From the NCBI GenBank assembly GCA_025356295.1, contig JANXUJ010000102.1:5480-69479 (forward strand): 64,000 bases of DNA, in the 5' to 3' direction. The notes below the pieces were generated by a model. That model was not told the DNA's origin and made no database searches. It was given only the letters and a program-made list of their open reading frames with translations. Positions 6,271 to 6,654 of the stretch are shown here, piece by piece (the stretch's first letter is position 1; each line of letters begins with the position of its first letter). The stretch is from Cyanobacteriota bacterium. Its GTDB lineage: Bacteria; Cyanobacteriota; Cyanobacteriia; Pseudanabaenales; Pseudanabaenaceae. A program made the translations under genes and the position numbers.

Positions 6271-6320
6271 GCCATTATGATGAATAGTGAGCGTATAAAT
6301 TGCCCACATACGGCGATCGC

Positions 6321-6654
6321 GTTGGTGATAATCCCTCGCAGATGCGCCAACCTCATATCGCGGACATGGTGGTTTAGGGAGATATCTCCATCTCTTTGAC
6401 TGGCGATCGCGCAAAGTTCTAAGGCTTTGAGAGTGACAATCACATCAGCTTTGAAGCATTTAAAAATATCTTCATAGCTTTTTCTGACTTGGATTAAAGC
6501 CTTGTTGTGTGAGACTTCTGTGTCGCTAAGGCTTTTCTCTAGCTTTCTAATCTGAATGCGATACTCAGTGTTTGAGTTAATTAAGATGAGCTTCTCGTTC
6601 TTGTGCTGTTGGAGTTTCTGGATCGAGTGGTTCCCAATCGGTGATATCTGACAT
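6321..6654 (-). pseudogene. Frameshifted paralog of ORF 12419-12805
   Basis: MSDITDWEPLDPET vs MSQITDWEPLDQET; a 1-nt insertion near 6580 creates TAA; 3' end lost at the HIP1 site 6313-6320. Confidence 0.8.

Follow-up and report, generated by a model that had tools for sequence, protein, structure and literature searches.

The function of HIP1, the octamer GCGATCGC, is still debated after 30 years, and a set of deletions that had arisen naturally between HIP1 copies in foreign DNA would be a useful clue to it. The question raised by the locus described here is whether a junction at which fragments of two genes meet on a HIP1 octamer (J2) is the footprint of such a deletion, as an initial annotation of this DNA had proposed; J2 provides no such clue. 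The host genome is a 3.46-Mb cyanobacterial draft of 42.5% GC in which HIP1 is the commonest 8-mer, with 7,303 copies in the assembly (2.11 per kb), while the window, by which is meant the whole stretch of 64,000 nucleotides analysed (C107:5480-69479), contains 124 (1.94 per kb).

Two related elements at one tRNA-Thr gene

The 2.2-kb relic at 6140-8366 in which J2 lies is a decayed tandem copy of a tRNA-Thr element and is placed distal to the tRNA, and an intact-looking element, E1, occupies the adjoining DNA (Table 1). The direct att repeats take in the 3′ end of the tRNA, the integrase adjoins the tRNA gene, and the five relic pieces between 6140 and 7174 are colinear and co-oriented with positions 9891-14918 of E1, the classic arrangement of two related elements which integrated one behind the other at a single tRNA gene, the distal one having decayed. 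The chromosomal ssb gene to the left of the relic is single-copy in the assembly according to tblastn. Divergence between E1 and the relic amounts to 9-12% and is largely synonymous, as is evident from piece A (84% at the DNA level as against 42 of 44 residues), so that the two elements must have diverged as functional siblings, E1 being a sibling of the relic and not its source; the intact element had previously been taken for the parent.

Table 1. Features of the relic, of E1 and of their surroundings, in window coordinates
Feature	Position	Strand	Remarks
Isopropylmalate dehydrogenase, enoyl-ACP reductase, Crp-type regulator	1-5450		housekeeping genes
ssb	5581-6036	+	Pfam SSB E=4e-17; chromosomal gene adjoining relic on left
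Hairpin, 20-bp stem	6079-6132		downstream of ssb; inverted self-match
J0	6139/6140		VapE fragment abuts hairpin region, 7 nt right of it; no HIP1
Relic piece A, 44-codon VapE-like fragment (P-loop region)	6140-6270	-	= 9891-10021 of E1; 84% DNA, 42/44 aa
J1	6271-6275		GCCAT, five unalignable bases between VapE and HNH fragments; no HIP1
Relic piece B, 46-nt HNH fragment (codons ~R46-H61)	6276-6321	-	= 11718-11763 of E1; 42/46 (91%)
J2	6313-6321		HIP1 octamer 6313-6320 plus G6321; piece B joined to piece C
Relic piece C, copy of 128-aa gene	6316-6655	-	= 12468-12806 of E1; 298/340 (88%), one 1-nt indel
MITE, ~110 bp	6660-6772		terminal inverted repeats GGTGTTGCTGGCTTAAGTATGAA / TTCATACTTAAATCAGCAACGCC
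Relic piece D, C-terminal codons of 192-aa ORF homologue	~6763-6861	+	= ~14540-14637 of E1; 86% DNA
Small intact relic ORF	6914-7174	+	homologous to E1 ORF 14733-14918, ~40-44% aa identity
ORFs without matches	7244-7573; 7449-7997		within 7180-8366
ORF without matches	7514-8149	-	within 7180-8366
att copy between relic and E1	8367-8467		101-nt repeat, 94% identical to 24264-24363 (self-comparison)
E1, ~15.8 kb (~16 kb), at tRNA-Thr	8468-24263		intact-looking
VapE-like primase/helicase of E1	9047-11698	-
HNH endonuclease gene of E1 (306 nt)	11593-11898	-	PHROGs E=3e-14; weak Pfam match
HIP1 in HNH gene of E1	11755-11762		cGC GAT CGC = R46 D47 R48; homologous to relic's junction HIP1
Two small ORFs of E1	11932-12222; 12252-12419
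128-aa gene of E1	12419-12805	-	family unknown
HIP1 at S-D-R codons of 128-aa gene	12449-12456		inside segment missing from relic
Right-breakpoint homologue in E1	12465-12472		GTAATTGC; HIP1 match 5/8; A-I-T codons
HTH regulator of E1	13479-13736	-
192-aa ORF of E1	14060-14638
Small ORF of E1	14733-14918
Tyrosine integrase of E1	23075-24184	-	adjoins tRNA-Thr
tRNA-Thr	24318-24389	-	3′ 46 nt fall within outer att copy 24264-24363

The initial annotation had recognised two of the relic pieces and missed piece A, piece D and a miniature element (MITE). Piece C is a pseudogene: its final 15 codons are absent, and a 1-nt insertion near 6582 throws it out of frame after codon 24. The C-terminus encoded by piece D (RDLINLKNKTGIHFKEPPKK) is also present in one of the related loci considered below, L008. 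From the last relic piece to the inner att copy (7180-8366, ~1.2 kb) no similarity to E1 and no Pfam or PHROG match was found, and a search of the relic for an integrase remnant was likewise negative. As in other cases where integrative elements or prophages have accumulated in tandem at a tRNA gene and decayed there, the locus shows an att that lies over the 3′ end of the tRNA, an intact element in the tRNA-proximal and a degraded one in the distal position, multiple deletions and the insertion of a small transposable element, and by this comparison there is nothing unusual about it; the relic anatomy is clarified as that of a tandem sibling element which decayed through several deletions and a MITE. 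As a possible empty or alternative site we considered the sister species G025 (91-94% identity to this genome), in which contig C493 stops at about window position 5334 and contig C60 resumes at about 24564, the region falling in an assembly gap; the ssb, relic and element region (19 kb) is unassembled or different in G025, which has no detectable ssb match.

The relic contains at least four junctions (J0 to J3), of which J2 is the only one to touch HIP1. About 1.7 kb is absent at J1 relative to E1, the best crossover falling after 6272 without microhomology and the two fragments being fused in frame. An alternative placement of J1 on the HIP1 at 11689-11696 was rejected, as it required extra indels and had no alignment support. 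The in-frame HNH-VapE fusion at J1 (..TLTIHH-NG-KTLIAAAARALS.., window 6261-6443, minus strand) is part of a 173-codon open frame (ORF 5893-6414, minus strand) which runs through the hairpin into ssb antisense and is probably a chance ORF. J3 (6655-6763) holds the MITE, seven further copies of which were found on other contigs (C79:1344-1460, C102:855-973, C186:12185-12296, C18:55-165, C234:2854-2965, C211:18723-18836 and C4:24846-24928); these copies are 90-97% identical and several have clear 8-bp target duplications. The relic copy is without a target duplication, and as its flanks differ and ~1.7 kb (12806 to ~14540 of E1) is missing, the loss at J3 is associated with the MITE and not with HIP1.

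Junction J2 and its partner site

The octamer GCGATCGC is present at 6313-6320 and at 11755-11762, exactly as first reported, and the assignment of the relic sequence to the HNH gene on the left and to the 128-aa gene on the right is borne out by matches of 42/46 and 298/340 positions, respectively. A precise three-way alignment in ungapped register places the crossover of minimum mismatch after 6321, with near-equal values for 6318-6326, and thus directly 3′ of GCGATCGC, one copy of which is retained at the junction, so that the breakpoint does fall within the octamer or right behind it. The match to the HNH gene extends through 6321, that to the 128-aa gene starts at 6316-6322, and no unaligned or filler bases are left between them; with the 128-aa match extended to 6316 and the HNH match to 6321 there is an overlap of 6 nt. 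Expressed in E1 coordinates, the missing segment comprises 704 bp (11764-12467), in keeping with the original estimate of ~0.7 kb, and takes in the 5′ part of the HNH gene, the small ORFs at 11932-12222 and at 12252-12419, and the final 15 codons of the gene at 12419-12805.

The identity of the right-hand partner can be read from the codons around the junction. The coding strand of the relic, in the 128-aa frame, reads ATT ATC ACC AAC GCG ATC GCC GTA TGT GGG (I I T N A I / A V C G), the 128-aa gene of E1 reads ATT ATC ACT AAT GCA ATT ACC GAT TTT AGC GAT CGC (I I T N A I T D F S D R), and the HNH gene of E1 reads TAC AAG CGC GAT CGC CGC ATC TGG (Y K R D R R I W). N-A-I is preserved across J2, which indicates that homology to the 128-aa gene reaches into the octamer and that the right partner corresponds to the A-I codons and not to a HIP1. 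The A-I codon site of E1 is GCAATTAC, which is not HIP1, and the nearest HIP1 of E1, at 12449-12456, is 16 nt from the junction. Four relatives were available for comparison, namely L008 (a MAG labelled Oscillatoriales cyanobacterium), L011 (GCA_020063685.1) and the metagenomic contigs L013 and L014, and all of them have AAY GCG ATT at N-A-I, followed by AGT, AAA or GAG. A full HIP1 is present 16 nt downstream, at the S/N-D-R codons, in E1 and in 4/4 relatives, in the same codon phase as the HIP1 of the HNH gene, and since this HIP1 falls within the lost segment, a ready-made HIP1 pair was bypassed as the crossover. The proposal that the deletion had HIP1 at both of its ends therefore finds no support at the right end, which is GTAATTGC in E1 and GCGATT in the four relatives, these serving as proxies for the parent. 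That the junction HIP1 arose after the deletion, by substitution, was also considered and rejected, because E1 has the octamer at the same codons. The more distant L011 is without it.

A GCG ATT partner and the HNH site overlap over the 6 nt CGCGAT on the coding strand (ATCGCG, 6316-6321, on the plus strand), whereas the partner of E1 itself (GCAATT) shares with the HNH side only GC.AT, as scattered matches. As GCG ATT occurs in 4/4 of the more distant relatives, the GCA of E1 looks derived, and a half-site, CGCGAT(T), is the most likely partner at J2 on the sequences at hand. The search for an intact close relative of the relic covered the DNA of 61 relatives, which gave 74%-identical copies at best, and 185,579 species genomes, which gave one distant locus; a search of 5.8 billion proteins with the 128-aa protein had a best non-self match of 70% identity, and blastn and tblastn detected no further element copy or relic in this genome. 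No intact close relative emerged from these searches, nor therefore one with HIP1 at both positions, of the kind which the HIP1-to-HIP1 proposal had called for, and the five homologues available are without a full HIP1 at N-A-I. We infer the pre-deletion state of the relic, its partner site included, from sequence comparison, and, since the closest non-self match to the 128-aa protein reaches only 70% identity, the 6-nt microhomology is deduced from the relatives.

HIP1 at breakpoints: chance level and genome-wide control

The region of E1 to which the relic pieces correspond (9891-14637) contains 11 HIP1 sites, or 2.3 per kb, and a random breakpoint would touch one in 2.1% of cases, or in 3.5% when an ambiguity of 6 nt is allowed. 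At least one of ~7 breakpoints is accordingly expected to touch HIP1 by chance in 14-22% of such relics, so that the single contact at J2 does not exceed the local chance level.

For a genome-wide control, blastn matches to 140 G025 contigs (865 kb) were chained and the resulting blocks globally aligned, giving 731 kb of aligned sequence. Pure indels of at least 10 bp with flanks at least 80% identical were collected, the interval over which each could slide was taken as its junction microhomology, and contact of this interval with HIP1 in the shorter allele was scored against random positions in the same block. Among the 225 indels of at least 10 bp there were 5 that touched HIP1 (7.3 expected; probability of at least the observed number 0.86), with 1 among the 63 of at least 20 bp (1.8 expected; 0.84) and 0 among the 25 of at least 50 bp (0.75 expected; 1.0), and the enrichment of HIP1 at breakpoints for which a test had been proposed is thus not seen genome-wide any more than at the relic. 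None of the 225 had HIP1 at both ends of the extra segment, a distance of up to 10 nt being allowed. Junction microhomology of at least 5 nt, or a tandem repeat, was present in 35% of the 225 indels, and 48 had zero microhomology. HIP1 does not act as a hotspot of deletion in this lineage, within the limits of a control whose indels are unpolarised, mostly short (only 25 reach 50 bp) and drawn from conserved chromosomal DNA, the decay of foreign DNA lying outside the sample. It is in such negative results that the use of this locus lies, the 225-indel, 731-kb control being without an excess of HIP1.

Competing accounts of J2 and previously described HIP1 deletions

J2 probably represents an ordinary microhomology deletion within a decaying tandem element, in which HIP1 is incidental owing to its being the commonest 8-mer in the genome. 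An older sibling was reduced to a wreck by several independent deletions, J2 being one of them, and the J2 event, in which roughly 0.7 kb was lost from between the HNH and 128-aa genes, would most likely have proceeded by RecA-independent illegitimate recombination or by replication slippage between direct repeats of ~6 nt. The repeats in question would be the CGCGAT of ..AAG CGC GAT CGC.. in the HNH gene and that of ..AAC GCG ATT.. in the 128-aa gene; the letters of HIP1 would then have supplied half of the microhomology, and recombination specific to HIP1 would not be needed. Of the footprint originally proposed, the deletion scar, its location in decaying foreign DNA and the one end on a HIP1 common to E1 have stood, while the second HIP1 end has not. 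A true HIP1-to-HIP1 deletion seems distinctly unlikely, though it may be envisaged in two ways: a full GCGATCGC may have stood at N-A-I-A in the lost parent, or the HIP1 of the HNH gene could have been joined to the S-D-R HIP1 (12449-12456) and the product then shortened by a 16-nt slippage from ATCGC to ATCGC. J2 does lie on a HIP1 whose counterpart is carried by E1, a HIP1 pair sharing one codon phase existed 16 nt away, the two-step route yields exactly the product observed, and the smtB locus offers a precedent for HIP1-flanked excision (Gupta et al. 1993, as cited in PMC13756078). Against this, a full HIP1 at N-A-I was found in 0/5 available homologues, the two-step route calls for an extra event and is less parsimonious than a single one, and genome-wide there is neither an excess of HIP1 at indel junctions nor any HIP1-HIP1 indel among the 225.

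Homology-independent end joining or a random break, with a partner that resembled that of E1 (GCAATTAC) and with both the microhomology and HIP1 as coincidences, is likewise distinctly unlikely. This account draws on E1, the closest sequence at hand, sharing just GC.AT with the HNH side, on J1 of the same relic, which has 5 filler bases and no microhomology, on the 48/225 indels with zero microhomology, and on the 14-22% of such relics in which one of ~7 breakpoints would meet HIP1; what speaks against it is that GCG ATT is found in 4/4 more distant relatives, the GCA of E1 looking derived, and that GCG AT stands at these codons in the relic itself, where N-A-I is kept across J2. Far more improbable still, and effectively refuted, is that no deletion took place at J2 because a lost sibling natively had the HNH and 128-aa genes side by side. 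The region from the primase to the 128-aa gene does vary, L008 having no HNH gene and L011 one small ORF as against two in E1, but 46 of the 306 nt of the HNH gene are all that survives, and the 128-aa gene to which they are fused out of frame has lost its final 15 codons together with its stop. With both partners truncated, sequence has certainly been lost at J2 and only the amount (~0.7-0.8 kb) depends on the architecture of the parent. As to a more general role, it is very improbable that breakage or slippage is favoured at HIP1 octamers, or at their CGATCG/GCGAT cores, specifically while horizontally acquired DNA is being eroded in cyanobacteria; if it were, a newly arrived or differently methylated HIP1 might, for instance, be nicked, and the effect would be invisible in conserved chromosomal DNA yet present in relics like this one.

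The idea of HIP1-flanked deletion is itself old, dating from 1993, and the literature already points to a generic short-repeat effect, with which J2 agrees. HIP1 was first noticed through the 352-bp excision at the smtB metallothionein locus of Synechococcus PCC 6301, which it flanks (Gupta et al. 1993, as cited in PMC13756078), and HIP1 repeats are described as promoting excision about as often in E. coli as in Synechococcus (Robinson et al. 1997, as summarised in PMC5861425 and PMC4390886), which is what a generic short-repeat process predicts; Elhai regarded HIP1 excision as a low-efficiency illegitimate recombination (PMC4390886). Like the smtB excision, J2 is a cyanobacterial deletion of a few hundred bp which left one GCGATCGC at its junction, but at smtB HIP1 stands at both ends whereas at J2 it does so demonstrably at one, the partner being a half-site in all homologues available and a nearby full HIP1 having been bypassed, and the case for J2 is the weaker because its octamer is at one end only. 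Deletion between short direct repeats by replication slippage or RecA-independent illegitimate recombination (Bzymek and Lovett 2001, as cited in PMC5861425) offers another likeness, as J2 is sub-kilobase, is without filler and would have kept one copy of a ~6-nt repeat, features in line with the microhomology seen in 35% of the indels of this lineage, and differs only in that the length of the J2 repeat is deduced rather than observed. HIP1-associated site-specific recombination of plasmids has been reported from Synechococcus PCC 7002 (Akiyama et al. 1998, as cited in PMC4390886 and PMC9239245), and there too the crossover lies on a HIP1-containing sequence; however, both partners carry extended GGCGATCGCC sites in that instance, while nothing at J2, where one partner is without a site, points to site specificity.

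The family to which E1 belongs, with its VapE-type primase, HNH gene and structural block of unknown function, is poorly characterised. E1 contains 24 HIP1 sites (1.5 per kb), a density near the 2.1 per kb of the host; the family has evidently long been resident in HIP1-rich cyanobacteria and may be called foreign only loosely. A module made up of the 128-aa gene, one or more small ORFs, a primase/helicase and a 61-62-aa ORF is present in L011 (JAIQBW010000182.1, 6001-11475), where the HNH gene is also found, and in L014 (4458-10502). Elements of the L011/L014 type have a XisA/XisC-type recombinase right after the primase module rather than an integrase at the far end, and in some related elements a DUF3854/D5-type primase takes the place of the VapE type, the replication modules being mosaic.
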